Positions 2,424 through 53,742 are shown, counted from the first letter of the stretch. The stretch is DNA of 64,000 bases from an uncultured bacterium (GCA_964410945.1 CAYPJE010000007.1:28733-92732), one strand, 5' to 3'. Translations and numbers: made by a program. The notes: generated from the sequence alone by a model not told the origin.

Positions 2424-2870
2424 ATGTCAACTTTCACCAGGATATATTATCATATCGTATTTTCTACTAAATATCGTGATCCATGTCTGACGATTGAAAA
2501 CAGGGAAAAACTATTTAAATATATCTGGGGGATAATTAATAAAAAGGATTGCCATTTATATCGCATCAATGGAGTGGAGGATCATATTCACATATTGACA
2601 GACTTGAAATCAAATATTTCCCTTGCCGATTTTGTTAAAGATATCAAAGTCGCCTCTTCAATCTGGATAAAAAATCAGAACATATTTCCTGCTTTTGAGG
2701 GCTGGCAGGAAGGCTATGCCGCTTTCACATGCGGCAGTAATGATAAAGATATGATAATCAATTATATCAAAAACCAGGAGGTTCATCACCGAAAACGAAC
2801 ATATTTGGAGGAGGTGGAAAGATTCCTGGAAGAGAATGAAATTGATTATGATAGCAGGTATCTGGTTTGA
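2424..2870 (+). CDS. IS200/IS605-type Y1 (HUH) transposase / RAYT-like protein
   Basis: N-terminal YYHIVFSTKYR block, HUH motif in EDHIHILTD, and a C-terminal Tyr helix NYIKNQEVHH. Length 148 aa. The gene and flanks are clearly more AT-rich than the neighbours. Confidence 0.85.
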   Translation: MSTFTRIYYHIVFSTKYRDPCLTIENREKLFKYIWGIINKKDCHLYRINGVEDHIHILTDLKSNISLADFVKDIKVASSIWIKNQNIFPAFEGWQEGYAAFTCGSNDKDMIINYIKNQEVHHRKRTYLEEVERFLEENEIDYDSRYLV

Positions 2871-11119: not shown

Positions 11120-11176
11120 TTGGTGAGAAGTCAGCCGGCGGCTGACGGTGAGCCTTATTAATTCCTATCTTGATCT

Positions 11177-11247
11177 GTAGGGACAACACAGTGTGTTGTC
11201 CGAAATATGGAAAATAAAACCCGGACAAGTCGCTGACTTGTCCCTAC
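11177..11247. repeat. REPIN-like inverted REP doublet, copy 1
   Basis: GTAGGGACAA-cacagtgtg-TTGTCCG, a 18-nt A-rich linker, then CCGGACAA-gtcgctgac-TTGTCCCTAC. On the minus strand the right arm reads GTAGGGACAAGTCAGCGACTTGTCCGG. Confidence 0.8.
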
Positions 11248-11401
11248 GAATTGCCGGTGGTATGATTTAAAAATGACGGATGGAATGTGTAGGCCTGCAA
11301 TGGGCAAACCTTTAAGTAGTGCTAACTCAGGTTGGAATTAGTAATTAGTGAGAAGTCAGCCGGCGGCTGGCGGTGAGCTATATTAATTCCTATCTTGAAC
11401 T

Positions 11402-11470
11402 GTAGGGACAACACAGTGTGTTGTCCGAAAAAAGGAAAAACCCCCGGACAAGTCGCTGACCTGTCCCTGC
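11402..11470. repeat. REPIN-like inverted REP doublet, copy 2 (slightly decayed)
   Basis: Same architecture as copy 1. The right arm carries substitutions (gacCtgtccctGc). Confidence 0.75.
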
Positions 11471-11677
11471 GAATTGCTGGTGGTAACATATTAAAAGGCA
11501 AATGGAATTTATTGTGCCTGTAATGGCAAATCTGAAATTAGTGGCAACACAGGATTTAATCTTTTGCAAATTAGTAGGCTATCAGCCTTCGGCTGGCGGT
11601 GAGAATGATGTGTGTGGGTGACAATTCGGTAATTCATTATACCAACATGGCTGTTTACTTTTATCCATACCGGGTTT

Positions 11678-11748
11678 GTAGGGACAACACAGTGTGTTGT
11701 CCGTGAAATGTATAAAACACCCCGGACAAGTCACTGACTTGTCCCTAC
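11678..11748. repeat. REPIN-like inverted REP doublet, copy 3
   Basis: GTAGGGACAACACAGTGTGTTGTCCG ... CCGGACAAGTCACTGACTTGTCCCTAC, followed by the same GAATTGCCGGTGGTATGATTTAAAAATGACGGATGGAAT tail as copy 1. Confidence 0.8.
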
Positions 11749-11830
11749 GAATTGCCGGTGGTATGATTTAAAAATGACGGATGGAATTGCCGTGTGGGTT
11801 AGGGGATTGGCAGGTCGAAGGGGCCGGCTT

Positions 11831-12226
11831 GTCCGTACCATCTGTGTGTAATGCCCGTTCCACAGCGATTGACCGTCCGTTCCGGGGGGTGGGAACGGGC
11901 ATTCCGATGGTACAGACCGCGTGTTCTCAGGGATGAGAACGTGCATTCCAATGCCACAGACCGTGTGTTCCCGGGGGCTCGACCGCACGTTCCGGGGGTA
12001 TAGACTACACGGTCGATAGCATGCGAATGCATGCTCGGACCGACCCGAGCGTATGTTCTGCCCCCTCCAAGTGTGTACTAGTGACCACCCGAGTGTGTGC
12101 TCTGACCATTCCGAGTGCATGCTCAAGACCATCCGAGTGCACACTCGGCACCCATCGATCGCCCACCCGAACCCCTGCGAGTACACATACGCGTGCCAAT
12201 ATAGTGCCAGGCACATCCGATCGATT
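11831..12226. repeat. GC-rich array of 18 consecutive degenerate 22-bp units (array A)
   Basis: The stretch parses without any indel into 22-mers. Examples: gggcattccgatggtacagacc / gcgtgttctcagggatgagaac / gtgcattccaatgccacagacc / gtgtgttcccgggggctcgacc ... gtgtactagtgaccacccgagt / gtgtgctctgaccattccgagt / gcatgctcaagaccatccgagt. 15 of 18 units start with G plus an alternating purine-pyrimidine run. Confidence 0.85.
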
Positions 12227-12246
12227 ATCTATTTAATTCCAGATTT

Positions 12247-12317
12247 GTAGGGACAACACAGTGTGTTGTCCGAAATATGGAAAATAAAACCCGGACAAAT
12301 CACTGACTTGTCCCTAC
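12247..12317. repeat. REPIN-like inverted REP doublet, copy 4
   Basis: The core differs from copy 1 at only 2 positions (ggacaaAtcActgac). It is preceded by TTAATTCC, as are copies 1 and 2. Confidence 0.8.
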
Positions 12318-12429
12318 GAATTGCTTTGATAAATCAGTGGATTATTTCAATCCTCTATTACATAGCCAATGGATTTATCCGTGGGTTTACAGAATTGGTG
12401 CTGAAAGAACCGTTACAACGGTTTAAATA

Positions 12430-25498: not shown

Positions 25499-27205
25499 AT
25501 GTTACACAAATCATTGATTCGTATAATTGTAGTTCTCATATTGATGTCCGGGGTTATGCCACTGCAAGCCCAGGATAAATCCACTAAATCCAGCAGCACC
25601 AAAACGGTGAGAAAGAAGAAGCCAACCCAGGATTCTTCCGATAAATCCCAGACTGCCAAACGGCCGACGGCAACCAGGAAAAAGCCCAGTACCAGTGCCA
25701 ACCGGCAATCAGCCACGCGCAAAACCAGCACGGCTAATCAGTCACGAACAAAAACAGCAACCTCGAGCAAGAAAAAACCTGCTTCCACTACCAGTAGTCG
25801 ATCGTCTGCCTCTAAGAAGAGACCGACTGCTTCAAAATCAACTGCCAGCGATCCTAAGCGTAGAACATCCACCAGCCGCAAGCAACCGGCCCGGCGTACT
25901 AAAGCAGCGGTGAGTAGACCCCCGGTACCTAAAGTCAATACCGTTAAAATGGCCGACGATATTTATTCCCTGACTGATGAACTCACTACCAGTTCCCGGC
26001 AGATGCAGCAGGCTTTATCCTATCTTCAGCCGATAACTAAAAGGCCGGCGGTACGCCTTGAATCAAAGGCGACGGTAAGTTTGGCCGAACTGGAACGCCA
26101 GGCTGACCAGAAACAGGATGATCTGAAAATTCAGCGGCAGCTGGCCAAAGAATACGAGCACCAGCAGAATTATGATGCGGCCATGGATATTTATCTTCGC
26201 ATGGTTTACAGTCAACCCCATAATCCCAACAGCCATTATTATCTGGGCAGCTATTATAATTCCATAAATTCTCCCCAAAAAGCCCGGCAGGCCTTCGAAG
26301 AGGCCTTACTGATCGATCCTAATCACTCGGCTACAATTGCAGCAATGGCCAATTATCCCGACCGGCGGAAAACACCAATGGTTGAAGAGATAAAACCGTT
26401 GTCGATGGATCAGCCCGCCGGCCAGATGAACGCCATTAAACGGGAATTGGACGCCGGCAATCTGAATGCCTCGCTGATCCTGATCGGAAAAGCCCAAACC
26501 GAGTTTCCCGATCAGGTTGGATTTGTATATCTGGAAGGCGTGGTTTACACCAGACAGGGACAGGTGGAAAAAGCCAAGACAGCCTATCTCCGGGCGACCC
26601 GTGTCGATCCCGATCACCAGGATACCCACCAGGCCCTGGCTGATATGTATTTTGAACAGGGTGTGTATCTGTATGCTGCCTTGTCCTGTGCCCAGGTCGT
26701 GCGTCTCGATCCTTTGAATATTTCGTTCCGATTTCGGCAGGGTATGTCATTTTTCCTGGCCGGAGAATGGGGCCGGGCAATATCTGCCTGGGAAGATTTA
26801 CTCCATTATGCCCCACGCAATTCTGACGTGAAGCAATATTTACCACAGGCCTATTACATATTGGCTACCGAGTACAACCGGCGGGGACAGTCATCACTGG
26901 GGCGAGAATCGTTTAATCGGGCACTGAGTGTTAATAATAATGCCCATTCCTGGTTACCGGGTGCCTTAACCGTTCTTGGCAAGTATTATCGCGAGCAGGG
27001 TTTCTTCAAGGAATCACTGACAGCGTTGCAGGAAGTGATCGAATTACAGCCCAAAGCGGCCGAAGCCTATACCGAAATCGGGATTACCTATTGGAAAATG
27101 GATGAGCACCGGCTGGCCCGTGCTGCCTGGCAACGCAGCCTGGAATTGCAACCGGCCAACAACGCCGCCCAGGGCTGGTTGATTCTCAGTCGCCAGAGTG
27201 GCTGA
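25499..27205 (+). CDS. secreted/anchored TPR-repeat protein with about 130-aa polybasic Ser/Thr/Lys/Arg-rich low-complexity region
   Basis: Signal-like MLHKSLIRIIVVLILMSGVMPLQAQ, then KSTKSSSTKTVRKKKPTQ...RRTKAAVSRPP, then multiple TPR-like helices (YYLGSYY, AYLRATRVDPDH, AYTEIGITYWK). Confidence 0.75.
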   Translation: MLHKSLIRIIVVLILMSGVMPLQAQDKSTKSSSTKTVRKKKPTQDSSDKSQTAKRPTATRKKPSTSANRQSATRKTSTANQSRTKTATSSKKKPASTTSSRSSASKKRPTASKSTASDPKRRTSTSRKQPARRTKAAVSRPPVPKVNTVKMADDIYSLTDELTTSSRQMQQALSYLQPITKRPAVRLESKATVSLAELERQADQKQDDLKIQRQLAKEYEHQQNYDAAMDIYLRMVYSQPHNPNSHYYLGSYYNSINSPQKARQAFEEALLIDPNHSATIAAMANYPDRRKTPMVEEIKPLSMDQPAGQMNAIKRELDAGNLNASLILIGKAQTEFPDQVGFVYLEGVVYTRQGQVEKAKTAYLRATRVDPDHQDTHQALADMYFEQGVYLYAALSCAQVVRLDPLNISFRFRQGMSFFLAGEWGRAISAWEDLLHYAPRNSDVKQYLPQAYYILATEYNRRGQSSLGRESFNRALSVNNNAHSWLPGALTVLGKYYREQGFFKESLTALQEVIELQPKAAEAYTEIGITYWKMDEHRLARAAWQRSLELQPANNAAQGWLILSRQSG

Positions 27206-36709: not shown

Positions 36710-36736
36710 TTAGCACTCTAAACTAAGGAGTGCTAA
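36710..36736 (+). promoter_or_regulatory. CIRCE operator (HrcA binding site) upstream of groES-groEL
   Basis: Perfect TTAGCACTC-N9-GAGTGCTAA inverted repeat, 115 nt upstream of the groES ATG. Confidence 0.92.
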
Positions 36737-37142: not shown

Positions 37143-38783
<1,641 letters not shown>

Positions 38784-38797
38784 TCCGAACAATGCAA

Positions 38798-38825
38798 AGC
38801 CCCTCTCCGGAGGGGCTTTTTTTTT
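38798..38825 (+). terminator. Rho-independent terminator of groESL
   Basis: agcccctc-tccg-gaggggct 8-bp GC stem followed by a T9 run. Confidence 0.88.
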
Positions 38826-39360
38826 CCGCCTTCGCAGAAGACCACGCCTGCGTGCCGAAAACAGCTACGTCGTGCAGGCACGGGCTCGCCCGTGGGGCTC
38901 CATCACAGAACAAGGATTAACGAATGATGAATTATGAAGTTTTGGCAATGAGAGTCGGGATGGAAAATTCTAAAATCGATATTCCCTGTTGGTTGTTCTG
39001 AAATTGAAAGAGGTTTGTAAAAAGGATACCTCCACCCGTGCACGACACGCCTGTGCATCGAAGTTGAAATGTAGATGTACCGTGCCCCTACGATGATTTA
39101 TGATTTGAGATTCTCGATGTATTTTGACTATTAGACCAGAATGAAAAGTATCAATATTATTACGAGCGCAGCGAAGCAATCTTTCCGGTCGTTGCCAGGG
39201 GAAGTAAATATCTCCATCTATGTTCCATTACTGTAACTACGATGGATAAAGCTTTGTTGTTCAATTTATCCACTCAGCACGAGGACATGGGGGCTCTGTC
39301 AATTGAGAGATTTCCACTTCGGGGACAAGTTCGCGAGACCAAGCGAAAGTGCGGTCTGTA

Positions 39361-39602
39361 CTGCTAAAATGACCGTTTGGGCCAAGTGAAATGGTCGATT
39401 GGGCTAAGTATAACGACCGTTTGGGTCAGCTGGAACGGTCGTTTGAGTGTGGTAAAAAGCACAATTGACCTGGCTAAAACGCCCTTTTGGGTATGGTAAA
39501 ACGGACGATTGGGTATGGTAAAATGCACGATTGGGTATGGTAAAATGCACGATTGGGTCAGCTAAAACGGTCGTTTGAGCGCGGTAAAACGTACGGTCCG
39601 GC
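39361..39602. repeat. array of 11 consecutive 22-bp tandem units (array B)
   Basis: ctgctaaaatgaccgtttgggc / caagtgaaatggtcgattgggc / ... / atggtaaaacggacgattgggt / atggtaaaatgcacgattgggt (x2, identical) / cagctaaaacggtcgtttgagc / gcggtaaaacgtacggtccggc. Exact register with no indels. Confidence 0.85.
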
Positions 39603-39628
39603 TGGTTGAGACACCGGAAAAAGACAGA

Positions 39629-40147
39629 TCAGACTATTTTAACAACCTCATCCAGCGGTTTACGTTTCTTCTGTCCGTGTTTCCGGTAGCCCTTGTTCTG
39701 ATAACCCAGCGGAGTGATCGAATAAATCACCTCGTTCTCCTTCAGCCCAACGGCTGCCGCCAGTTTTTCAGGATCATAGGCCTCGATCCAGCAGGTGCCC
39801 ACACCTTCATTTTCCGCCGCCAGAATGATATGATCCATGGCAATCGTCAGATCGGTCTCGATGGAATTATAGCCGTCATACGACCGCACCCAGGATTTTG
39901 ATTTATCACCGATAATGATCAGAATATGCGGAGCCTGTTTGAACCACGGTTTATGGTAGCAGGGCCGTACTTTTTCAAGCATCTTGTCCGATGAAACCAG
40001 CAGGAATGTCCAGGGCTGGTTATTACAGGCCGATGGCGCCAGCCTACCCGCGTTCAATATTCGCTTTAGAATACTATCGTCAATTTTTCTGTCCGGGTCA
40101 TAATCCCTGACACTTTCCCGGTTGCTTATCAAATTGTATAAATCCAT
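39629..40147 (-). CDS. nitroreductase-family protein
   Basis: SVRDYD...RLAPSACNNQPW is the nitroreductase FMN-binding signature. Length 172 aa. Confidence 0.85.
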   Translation of the reverse strand: MDLYNLISNRESVRDYDPDRKIDDSILKRILNAGRLAPSACNNQPWTFLLVSSDKMLEKVRPCYHKPWFKQAPHILIIIGDKSKSWVRSYDGYNSIETDLTIAMDHIILAAENEGVGTCWIEAYDPEKLAAAVGLKENEVIYSITPLGYQNKGYRKHGQKKRKPLDEVVKIV

Positions 40148-52008: not shown

Positions 52009-53742
52009 ATGCCATTCAGTACATTAGATATTATTATCATCCTGGCCTACCTGGCCCTGATGATCTTTGTTGGTATCAAAATGAAATCACGGGCGGAAGG
52101 GAGTACCAGCGATTATTTTACCGGTGGACGTTCCATGCCCTGGTGGCTGGCCGGTGTTTCCATGGTTGCCACGACCTTTGCCGCGGACACACCGCTGGCG
52201 GTGACCGGAATCATCGCCGCCGACGGGATCGCCGGGAACTGGATCTGGTGGAATTTCATGTTCTCCGGTTTTGTGACCGTATTCCTGTTTGCCCGCCTTT
52301 GGCACCGGGCCGGCGTTCTCACCGATGTTGAAGTGATCGAGTTACGCTACAGCGGGAAAGCAGCCAGTATTTTACGCGGTTTCCGGGCGCTATACCTGGC
52401 CTTCCCGATCAACTGTGTCATCATGGGGTGGGTAACCCTGGGGATGTCAAAAGTGATCGGCGTGATGACCGGGATCAATTCCTGGTATATTCTGATCGGC
52501 CTGTTTGTGCTGACCGGTATGTATATCGTTGTCTCGGGACTGTGGGGAGTTGTTGTAACTGACTTTCTCCAGTTCATCATTGCCATGATTGGGGCAATCG
52601 TGCTGATGTTTTTCGCCTTGAAGGAAGTCGGTGGAATCGATGGTTTGACCGCCGGACTGGCCAACCGGTTCGGGTCCGATCATTTCTATCTGGATTTCTC
52701 ACCGATCGGGCATCCGAAAATATTACTCAGTACAGTGCTGGTCTGGCTGGGAGTCCAGTGGTGGGCTTCCTGGTACCCGGGAGCCGAACCGGGCGGTGGC
52801 GGTTATATCGCCCAGCGGATGTTTTCCACCCGCAATGAGAAAGAGGCCGTAAAAGCAACCCTGTTTTTCAACCTGGCCCACTATGCCCTGCGGCCCTGGC
52901 CCTGGATCATGGTGGCCCTGGCATCACTGATACTGTACCCAGGTCTGGCCGATCCTGAAAAAGGATATGCCATGGCGATGGTCAACCTGTTACCTTCAGG
53001 TTTACTTGGCCTGTTGACCGTTGCTTTCCTGTCGGCTTTCATGTCCACAATTTCCACCCAGGTCAACTGGGGATCGTCCTATGTGGTCAATGATTTTTAT
53101 GTCCGTTTTATCAAACCGGCGGACCGCTTCAATTCGGAAGCTGAAGCCCAGAAGCATTATGTATTTGTCTCACGGATCGCCACCATTCTGATGATGCTGG
53201 CGGGTATCCTGGTATCATTTTTCTTCGAATCGGTGAAAGGCGGTTGGGAATTCATCCTGTCCCTGGGAGCCGGTGCCGGACTGGTATACATGCTGCGCTG
53301 GTACTGGTGGCGGGTGAACGCCTGGAGCGAGATCAGTGCCATGCTGGCGGCTCTGGTTGCCAGTACTGCCGCCGGATCGTTGGGTTTCGAGGGCTTTGCC
53401 AATAAGATGATCTTTACGACCATTGTTACCACCATTGTCTGGTTAGCCACCACCTTCCTTACTAAAACGGAAGATAAAGCAGTACTCCAAGCCTTTTTTG
53501 ACAAAGTAAGGCCAGCCGGGCCGGGCTGGAAACCTTTCCTGGGTGATCGCAAACCGGAAGCGGTATTTCCCATGATCGTTAATGTAATCCTGGCTGTGCT
53601 GGTTGTGATCGGATCGCTGTTCGGAATCGGCTACCTGATCTTCGGGATTTACAGCCGGATGCTTGTGTTTGGACTGGTAGCGGGGCTGGCCGGATGGATC
53701 CTTTCCCGCCGGATGACAAAAATTACAGCTGTTGACGGATGA
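52009..53742 (+). CDS. sodium:solute symporter (SSS family)
   Basis: About 13 TM helices and N-terminal YFTGGRSMPWW, typical of SSS transporters. Confidence 0.88.
   Translation: MPFSTLDIIIILAYLALMIFVGIKMKSRAEGSTSDYFTGGRSMPWWLAGVSMVATTFAADTPLAVTGIIAADGIAGNWIWWNFMFSGFVTVFLFARLWHRAGVLTDVEVIELRYSGKAASILRGFRALYLAFPINCVIMGWVTLGMSKVIGVMTGINSWYILIGLFVLTGMYIVVSGLWGVVVTDFLQFIIAMIGAIVLMFFALKEVGGIDGLTAGLANRFGSDHFYLDFSPIGHPKILLSTVLVWLGVQWWASWYPGAEPGGGGYIAQRMFSTRNEKEAVKATLFFNLAHYALRPWPWIMVALASLILYPGLADPEKGYAMAMVNLLPSGLLGLLTVAFLSAFMSTISTQVNWGSSYVVNDFYVRFIKPADRFNSEAEAQKHYVFVSRIATILMMLAGILVSFFFESVKGGWEFILSLGAGAGLVYMLRWYWWRVNAWSEISAMLAALVASTAAGSLGFEGFANKMIFTTIVTTIVWLATTFLTKTEDKAVLQAFFDKVRPAGPGWKPFLGDRKPEAVFPMIVNVILAVLVVIGSLFGIGYLIFGIYSRMLVFGLVAGLAGWILSRRMTKITAVDG

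Follow-up and report, generated by a model that had tools for sequence, protein, structure and literature searches.

What kind of element is the row of 22-bp units that lies between groEL and a nitroreductase gene in the DNA of an uncultured bacterium, and does it form one family with a second row of the same period in the same stretch? Here we address both questions for the first of these rows, array B (the second is array A), in the setting of the whole 64,000-nucleotide stretch of DNA that was analysed, hereafter the window. The host belongs to the FCB group and encodes proteins with type IX secretion (T9SS) sorting domains; the nearest named relatives of its nitroreductase, at 78% identity, come from Ignavibacteriota and Ca. 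Neomarinimicrobiota. Our verdict is that array B is an iteron-like or transposon-end-like minisatellite.

Array B and its surroundings

An initial annotation of the window had placed 11 head-to-tail units of exactly 22 bp at 39361-39602, between convergent groEL and nitroreductase genes and inside an 845-bp spacer, and all of this was borne out. Read in a 22-bp register from 39361, the array holds 11 units and no indels, and Tandem Repeats Finder detects a period of 22 at 39365-39425 and at 39475-39569, together with higher-order periods of 44 and 66 bp across 39421-39589. The consensus unit is nnGSTAAAAYGnnCGWTTGGGY. The features of the locus are as follows:

37155-38783, plus strand: groEL, the left neighbour of the gap that holds array B
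38796..38819, plus strand: intrinsic terminator of groEL, a strong hairpin with a 10-bp stem followed by a T-run
38820..39338, no strand: non-coding spacer left of array B, with no Pfam-supported ORF, Rfam match or excess RNA structure
39339..39360, no strand: probable decayed twelfth unit, in which A8, A9, G11, C14 and T17 are kept
39361..39602, no strand: array B, 11 units with one dyad per unit between columns 12 and 13; core AAAYG-NN-CGWTT
39515..39558, no strand: two identical units, ATGGTAAAATGCACGATTGGGT x2, which point to a unit having been duplicated recently
39603..39628, minus strand: short tail between array B and the nitroreductase stop codon
39629-40147, minus strand: nitroreductase gene, the right neighbour of the gap

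The units of array B have a mean mutual identity of 65%, and a two-unit core pattern matches the array six times, as against no match in 100 shuffles. As had been noted at the outset, the neighbouring units at 39515 and 39537 agree at 22 of 22 positions, the unit at 39493 agrees with them at 20 of 22, and array B is AT-richer than array A (47.9% vs 59.7% GC). The annotation had also suspected degenerate copies out to about 39344 and about 39624. On the left this is plausible for one decayed unit, since 39339-39360 keeps five of the nine best-conserved columns, where ~2.25 would be expected by chance; on the right it does not, the candidate units past 39602 keeping three of nine and two of nine, and a rightward extension is unsupported.

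The terminator at 38796-38819 separates groEL transcription from the array. No strong terminator was found between the nitroreductase stop codon and array B; a weak minus-strand hairpin (CCGGTG...CAGCCGG, 39598-39617) follows that stop codon and overlaps the end of the array. The spacer contains seven ORFs of 31-69 aa, none with a meaningful Pfam match (best E = 0.084, below the cut-off), and the spacer RNA left of array B folds no better than shuffles. Rfam returned no gathering-score match to array B—its matches in the window are only tRNAs and a fluoride riboswitch elsewhere—and at a permissive threshold the interval 38700-39750 gave only weak matches, at the groEL terminator. A search of translated array B against 5.8 billion proteins yielded no match, and translated array A matched only its own ORF; a literature search with the core sequences returned chance matches only, in primers or unrelated sequence.

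Anatomy of the repeat unit

Variation within array B is distributed very unevenly over the 22 columns. Six columns are invariant (T5, A8, A9, G11, C14 and T17) and five (1, 2, 12, 13 and 16) are near random; the unevenness is significant in a multinomial test (P = 0.0007), and the observed variance was reached by none of 20,000 row-preserving shuffles. A dyad-symmetry profile places exactly one centre of symmetry in each unit, between columns 12 and 13, and the unit therefore has a 12-bp core, AAAYG-NN-CGWTT. The dyad is of even length with 6-bp arms, whose complementarity is 62% in B and, in A, 57%; the highest value among 300 background sets was 52%. Outside the core, each unit has a free linker and a short extension that is conserved but asymmetric, with GST on the left side and GGGY on the other.

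Single units of array B fold no better than shuffles (mean MFE -2.6 kcal/mol, mean z = -0.43), and the three best-conserved units (39493-39537) give no fold at all; the palindrome is therefore a feature of the duplex, not a hairpin. The whole array does fold better than shuffles (minus strand, z = -2.7; plus strand, z = -4.1), because the units pair with one another. Judged from the sequence, the palindrome is best read as a putative double-stranded protein-binding site that returns every two helical turns. Isolated sites of the array-core type were not found elsewhere in the window.

Array A and its relation to array B

The annotation had remarked that the two arrays share a 22-bp period, and autocorrelation of the whole window at lags of 5-60 confirmed it: just two periodic regions emerged, both at lag 22 (and 44), at ~11789-12246 for A and ~39302-39620 for B, with match fractions of 0.56 and 0.70 over a background of 0.25 +/- 0.04. 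Array A comprises ~15 units in perfect phase whose mutual identity is only 46%, with five near-invariant columns and, as in B, one dyad per unit. It falls into two halves:

11866..11997, no strand: left half of array A, 6 units of 22 bp with dyad cores GAMCG-NN-YRTTC
12004..12179, no strand: right half of array A, 8 units of 22 bp with dyad cores GAGTG-YR-YRCTC, in phase with the left half

Both window arrays sit in long 3'-3' gaps. The dyads of A and B were located independently before the half-sites were aligned on them; the aligned half-site of B reads (C/A)AAACG, and in array A the left half gives (G)GAACG and the right half CGAGTG. The annotation had called for a cross-match of the two arrays in both orientations, and the answer depends on what is compared. 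Half-sites of B and A are similar at P ~0.017 over all 5,040 column permutations. Whole units give P = 0.04 by column permutation, and P ~0.38 when set against the best rotation of random 22-mers, so that homology of whole units is not significant under a fair null. The relative orientation of the arrays is undefinable because the part that they share is palindromic. The likeness of the unit junctions that had been pointed out (TTGAGT/GTGG in B, CCGAGT/GTGT in A) is real as far as the letters go; these are not homologous positions, however, because they belong to the linker in B but make up the left part of the dyad core in A. The flanks of A and B have nothing in common, and those of B have no counterpart elsewhere in the window or among the loci fetched from other genomes. 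Taken together, the comparisons suggest direct homology of A and B only weakly: the arrays share a design and related half-sites, yet are not two copies of one element.

A further 22-bp array elsewhere in the genome, on which the annotation had made the family hypothesis depend in part, is absent from the window and from the 7.3 kb past its right end; there is neither a further copy of B nor a third array in ~71 kb of this genome, and the window holds no partner array in inverted orientation. Other repeats do occur. Two-copy tandem repeats of 23 bp and 29 bp, unrelated to the 22-bp arrays, lie within coding regions at 52729-52773 and 25703-25759, in genes for a sodium:solute symporter and a TPR protein. 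A hairpin-doublet repeat of ~110 nt (GTAGGGACAACACAGTGTGTTGTCCG ... CGGACAAGTCnCTGACTTGTCCCTAC) is present in four copies, at 11176-11286, 11399-11509, 11677-11787 and 12246-12356; it is headed by GTAG and REPIN-like (two inverted REPs), and two of its copies bracket array A, with none near array B.

Related arrays in other genomes

In species-representative genomes the two-unit core pattern was found at at least 119 loci, as against ~17 chance matches expected in 596 Gb. Among the matches listed, these are concentrated in Bacteroidales—Ca. Equicola faecalis, Prevotella, Parabacteroides sp. PF5-9, Phocaeicola barnesiae and Bacteroides MAGs—and in one termite-gut Treponema MAG. Ca. Equicola faecalis has at least 25 B-like loci, and Phocaeicola and Prevotella have several arrays each. 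The Bacteroidales relatives of B are tandem 18-bp palindromes that form hairpins. In Treponema sp. Kf353_bin92, arrays of 10-45 units of TAAAAYGGTCGTTTGATTTTnn, with an alternating spacing of 21/22 bp, occur on at least 15 contigs; array B is 69% identical to them over 145 nt. Several of these genomes have dispersed copies that share short flanks: the copies measure ~100 bp in Parabacteroides, the matches extend to ~220 bp in Bacteroides MAGs, and the composite elements of Ca. Equicola are ~400 bp long. The window-like two-unit pattern had no match in the metagenome collection, and viral contigs held nothing relevant.

The architecture of some of these repeats deserves description in its own right. 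The Treponema arrays belong to two-part satellites, [GGGACAGACCTCTGTTGATTCG]n abutting [TAAAAYGGTCGTTTGATTTTnn]n, the latter of up to 45 units, and many of these satellites lie at contig ends; other arrays of 21/23 nt lie near them, for example TCTCTGCATTAGAGGACAGAGAG x17. The dispersed ~400-bp composite of Ca. Equicola faecalis consists of [CCATCGAAGGGGTCCCGTATAA] x2-3, a conserved 200-bp middle and [CACAAACGAGCGTTTGTCGAGG] x3-6, and has no Rfam match.

Conservation of the core across these genomes was rejected as evidence of selection, being circular: the search pattern forces the core. What the pattern does not force is the extension into arrays of three or more units. Nor does it bear on the arrays at the same loci (at least 119) that lack the searched core, where period 22 is the most frequent (n = 27), followed by 21 (n = 18), with the next period at 9; two helical turns appear to be a preferred repeat length whatever the sequence. 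No neighbouring gene recurs—clustering of ORFs around the Ca. Equicola and Treponema arrays gave only translations of the repeats—and Rfam found nothing in 21 related loci. In the wider class, 10 arrays have a convergent gene context, 10 a co-directional and 5 a divergent one, so that convergent placement is not a property of the class.

The proposal of a family of elements, as opposed to two unrelated expansions, stands in part. Since arrays of the B type are found in many other genomes, such elements do form a real class, and the shared architecture and related half-sites speak for a family; against this, homology of whole units is not significant, the flanks have nothing in common and no third array lies in the ~71 kb scanned.

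Repeats at the ends of IS21-family elements

Three GAMC-N4-RTTC cores at 22-bp intervals, modelled on the left half of array A, served as a further search pattern. It matched more than 120 metagenome loci, where less than one match was expected by chance, and 39 of these carry an IstA transposase (Pfam Mu-transpos_C_2; NCBIfam NF033546, IS21 family transposase, E = 2e-80). In contigs long enough to check, the left ends of these IS21-family elements bear 5-8 tandem repeats of 22/23 bp, with istA ~90 nt downstream; a partial unit starting with TG adjoins the first repeat, and in two loci inverted copies of the repeat lie ~2.7 kb away. Units within one functional IS21 end are only 72-80% identical and conserve the core, and an orphan end would therefore start out looking like the window arrays. 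The remaining matches are orphan arrays of many kinds, for example CCGATGAACATATGTTCGTGGG x3-5 in unrelated contexts.

Two of the repeats met here merit a note of their own. The IS21-family element is widespread in soil and sediment; the 5-8 tandem 22/23-bp repeats of its left end (ATCGTGAACACCGATTCCGGTC) vary in number between copies and exceed the two usually described. One orphan family consists of 3-5 tandem units of 22 bp, each based on a perfect palindrome of 16 bp (ATGAACATATGTTCAT), in unrelated neighbourhoods that include dxs, TPR proteins, a thioesterase and a restriction enzyme.

The MuA and TnsB sites at the ends of Mu and Tn7 are also 22 bp long and similar to the multi-repeats of IS21. 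The terminal inverted repeats of IS21 are themselves multiple direct repeats (L1/L2, R1/R2) placed 23 bp apart, which a tetramer of IstA engages while wrapping the DNA, an arrangement that has been likened to the ends of Mu and Tn7 (PMC10122671). Like the window arrays, IS21 ends are direct repeats at a spacing of 22-23 bp with a conserved core and free linker columns, their units are partly identical, and their copy number varies between copies; the GAMC-N4-RTTC cores of the left half of A match the repeat format at the 39 left ends. The differences are as clear. The window arrays run to 11-16 units, whereas IS21 has 2-8; B has the half-site AAAYG where IS21 has GAAC, and the free columns do not match. 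On the columns that the search had left free, a specific relationship between the left half of A and the IS21 lineage was likewise rejected. No IstA was detected in the window (tblastn with two IstA proteins, E <= 1e-3) or beside B-like arrays, and the window arrays have neither istA/istB nor a definable TG/CA terminus—a TG at 39350-39351 lies inside the decayed unit, at an offset that differs from IS21 termini. Pfam searches of the neighbouring genes showed no IstB, Rep, Par, transposase or other DNA-binding gene adjoining array B; around the array no terminal inverted repeat or target-site duplication could be defined, and no inverted repeat bounds the segment.

Comparison with other repeat systems

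Tandem repeats of 22 bp are the classic format of iterons, as at the origins of lactococcal theta plasmids and the chlamydial plasmid, and plasmid iterons are understood as sites for a binding protein that all lie on the same face of the helix. Array B resembles them in its head-to-tail 22-bp repeats in non-coding DNA; unlike them, it is chromosomal, by groEL, with no rep gene adjoining and no similar plasmid sequence. Searches by blastn of 72,556 plasmids and 50,697 phages gave no match, and no Rep domain was found among the window genes checked. Plasmid centromeres offer a second parallel, by description only: F sopC (12 x 43 bp), R1 parC (10 x 11 bp) and the 20-bp repeats of pSK41 are tandem rows of dyad-holding sites that a partition protein coats into a higher-order complex. 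In contrast to these, array B is chromosomal, has another period and has no parA/parB/parR-type gene nearby. A CRISPR array was rejected, as the units abut head to tail without spacers.

The cores of array A were also compared with two known operators, CIRCE, which is bound by HrcA (TTAGCACTC-N9-GAGTGCTAA), and the LexA-type box (GAAC-N4-GTTC), and both readings were rejected. A perfect GAAC-N4-GTTC occurs in neither array, and the sole CIRCE within 3 mismatches is a genuine one: it is a perfect copy at 36710-36736, upstream of groES, which is where control of a groESL operon by HrcA would place it.

Among chromosomal repeats, the BrickBuilt MITE of Porphyromonas gingivalis is an intergenic, multi-copy and imperfect tandem array of ~22-23 nt without spacers, and resembles array B as an intergenic spacer-less array with conserved and non-conserved columns (PMC4596501). 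It differs in having period 23, an unrelated unit (AGACCATAGTATCCTCTCATATG) and leader and tail segments with IS5-like 12-nt TIRs (GAGACCTTTGCA). Allowing 2 mismatches, no BrickBuilt-type TIR lies near A or B, and the two matches elsewhere in the window are fewer than chance predicts; membership was rejected on unit sequence, period and TIRs. REP and BIME elements are likewise clusters of short palindromes in extragenic DNA, and REPs typically lie downstream of genes and between convergent genes (PMC3733652). The units of B, however, form no stable hairpins and all stand head to tail at exactly 22 bp, whereas REP/BIME alternate in orientation; no GTAG/CGTC tag is conserved in the B consensus, although the repeats that flank A do start with GTAG.

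Assembly of the locus and its relatives

Logan contigs that carry the identical nitroreductase all stop at the identical units 39515-39558, and those that carry the identical GroEL all end at or just before 38854, 35 nt past the groEL terminator—exactly at 38854 in three samples, and a few bases earlier in the fourth, a strain variant that bears a SNP. The interval 38855-39515 is bridged by no short-read contig, which fits DNA that is repeated or variable between strains; for the stop at 38854, either the spacer beyond it is repeated elsewhere or the strains differ at that point. Nitroreductase homologues of 77-81% identity lie in different neighbourhoods without arrays; synteny is not conserved, and no empty site is definable from these loci of relatives.

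Another short-read break falls near a stand-alone gene for a 148-aa IS200-like Y1 transposase at 2424-2870 (plus strand), in a stretch of low GC (36%). The protein matches the NCBIfam IS200/IS605 model (E = 1e-22) and scores below the cut-off for REP-associated tyrosine transposases; small CCC(C/T)GGA(G/A)GGG hairpins lie upstream of it (flank 1990-2420). Some contigs end ~490 bp past the gene for an FAD-binding dehydrogenase (1136-1984), at about the start of the transposase gene, which suggests that this gene has several copies.

Interpretation and alternatives

Array B is a strictly phased row of dyad sites with position-specific constraint. By analogy it looks most like the transposase-binding repeats at transposon ends or like plasmid iterons, and the reading that we favour, tentatively and at a little less than an even chance, is an orphan minisatellite of protein-recognition repeats of the mobile-element type. 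We infer that it is what remains of a dispersed element, or a non-autonomous derivative of one, and not a dedicated regulator of the host. Because 22 bp is about two helical turns, all cores would face the same side of the duplex; a sequence-specific protein, perhaps a dimer or a two-HTH protein like IstA, MuA or TnsB, may coat the array co-operatively and bend or wrap its DNA, by what would be the same logic as in the end repeats of IS21, Mu and Tn7 and in plasmid iterons. The array would grow and shrink by duplication and loss of units—the identical units at 39515 and 39537 presumably being a recent duplication—and it may persist because a 3'-3' convergent gap holds no promoter to disrupt. 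In favour of the orphan minisatellite we count the invariant columns beside random ones, the lack of indels and the single duplex-read dyad of each unit; by analogy, the multi-copy dispersed relatives, the IS21 ends of the same spacing and the putative safe haven of the 3'-3' gaps point the same way, and the failure of short-read contigs to bridge the locus fits. Against it we count that array B has no transposase, Rep or Par neighbour, no TIRs, unmatched flanks and no further copy in ~71 kb, that the free columns of the left half of A are unlike the IS21 lineage, and that the window-like pattern is without a metagenome match.

The main rival is a function for the host, which the invariant columns of the highly diverged array A keep alive: a decaying relic should lose such columns, and the five that A retains at 46% identity may indicate continuing constraint and hence a host function. 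Here a chromosomal protein would coat the phased sites between converging transcription units in an iteron-like platform, for example as a roadblock or terminator, a topological barrier, a site for gyrase or a nucleoid protein, or a site of chromosome organisation. Core columns and phase are strongly conserved in both arrays, both lie exactly where converging transcription meets, the nitroreductase gene has no strong terminator before array B, and periods of 21/22 bp recur among unrelated units elsewhere (27 and 18 arrays vs 9). We nevertheless hold such a platform to be unlikely: it has no candidate protein and no isolated sites elsewhere in the window, the class shows no preference for convergent genes, arrays elsewhere are dispersed and multi-copy with no recurring neighbour gene, and close homologues of the nitroreductase in relatives lack the array, though synteny is not conserved there. 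A broader proposal, which we rate as still more doubtful, is a class of chromosomal satellites that spans phyla (FCB group, Bacteroidales, Treponema), is coated by a conserved protein of host or element and has a cellular role: such satellites might, for example, insulate converging transcription, fix local supercoiling or organise the chromosome. That periods of 21/22 bp predominate would then reflect the geometry of that protein on DNA.

The other explanations each have only a slim chance in our estimate. Were array B an element at the RNA level, as a 3' UTR of the nitroreductase operon or transcribed from promoter-like TGGTAAAAT motifs of its own, it would supply REP-like stabilising hairpins, a terminator region or a protein sponge. 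Only 27 nt do separate the nitroreductase stop codon from the start of the array, and no strong terminator intervenes; the array as a whole folds better than shuffles on either strand, and REPs are typical 3' of genes and between convergent genes (PMC3733652). What makes a role in RNA so improbable is that single units fold no better than shuffles and the best-conserved ones not at all, that the conserved dyad cannot close an RNA loop because its centre is only 2 nt, and that no Rfam family is recognised here or in related loci; as for a translated product, 22 is not a multiple of 3 and there are no peptide homologues. Plain slippage, by which a chance 22-bp duplication expanded and then drifted without any recognition function, would account for the identical adjacent units as ongoing duplication, for the decayed edges and for residence in a gap under no selection. 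Drift, however, cannot leave six columns invariant and five randomised or fix a dyad at one phase in every unit, and it explains neither a second array of the same period and architecture nor the same core in arrays of unrelated phyla; we regard it as a poor candidate. Equally improbable is the remnant of a specific known replicon or element, be it the iterons of a plasmid or phage origin or a decayed IS21-family end. The classic iteron format and the spacing of IS21 ends suit it; blastn found no match among the 72,556 plasmids and 50,697 phages, however, the window has no Rep, IstA or IstB, B has at least 11 units against the 5-8 of the IS21 left ends examined, and the free columns are unlike the IS21 lineage.

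Significance

Short-period intergenic arrays of bacteria are usually written off as slippage; array B shows column constraint, a fixed dyad and a two-turn phase, and a design of this type is seen again in unrelated bacteria of the gut and the environment and in the end repeats of IS21-family elements. If arrays of this sort are orphaned or amplified transposon-end repeats, this would explain the origin of many bacterial minisatellites of 21-23 bp and, with it, breaks in short-read assemblies; if it is a protein of the host that coats them, they would represent a chromosomal binding platform of a new kind. The core AAAYG-NN-CGWTT provides a ready bait for the putative binding protein, and that binder would be the key to the role of the array.
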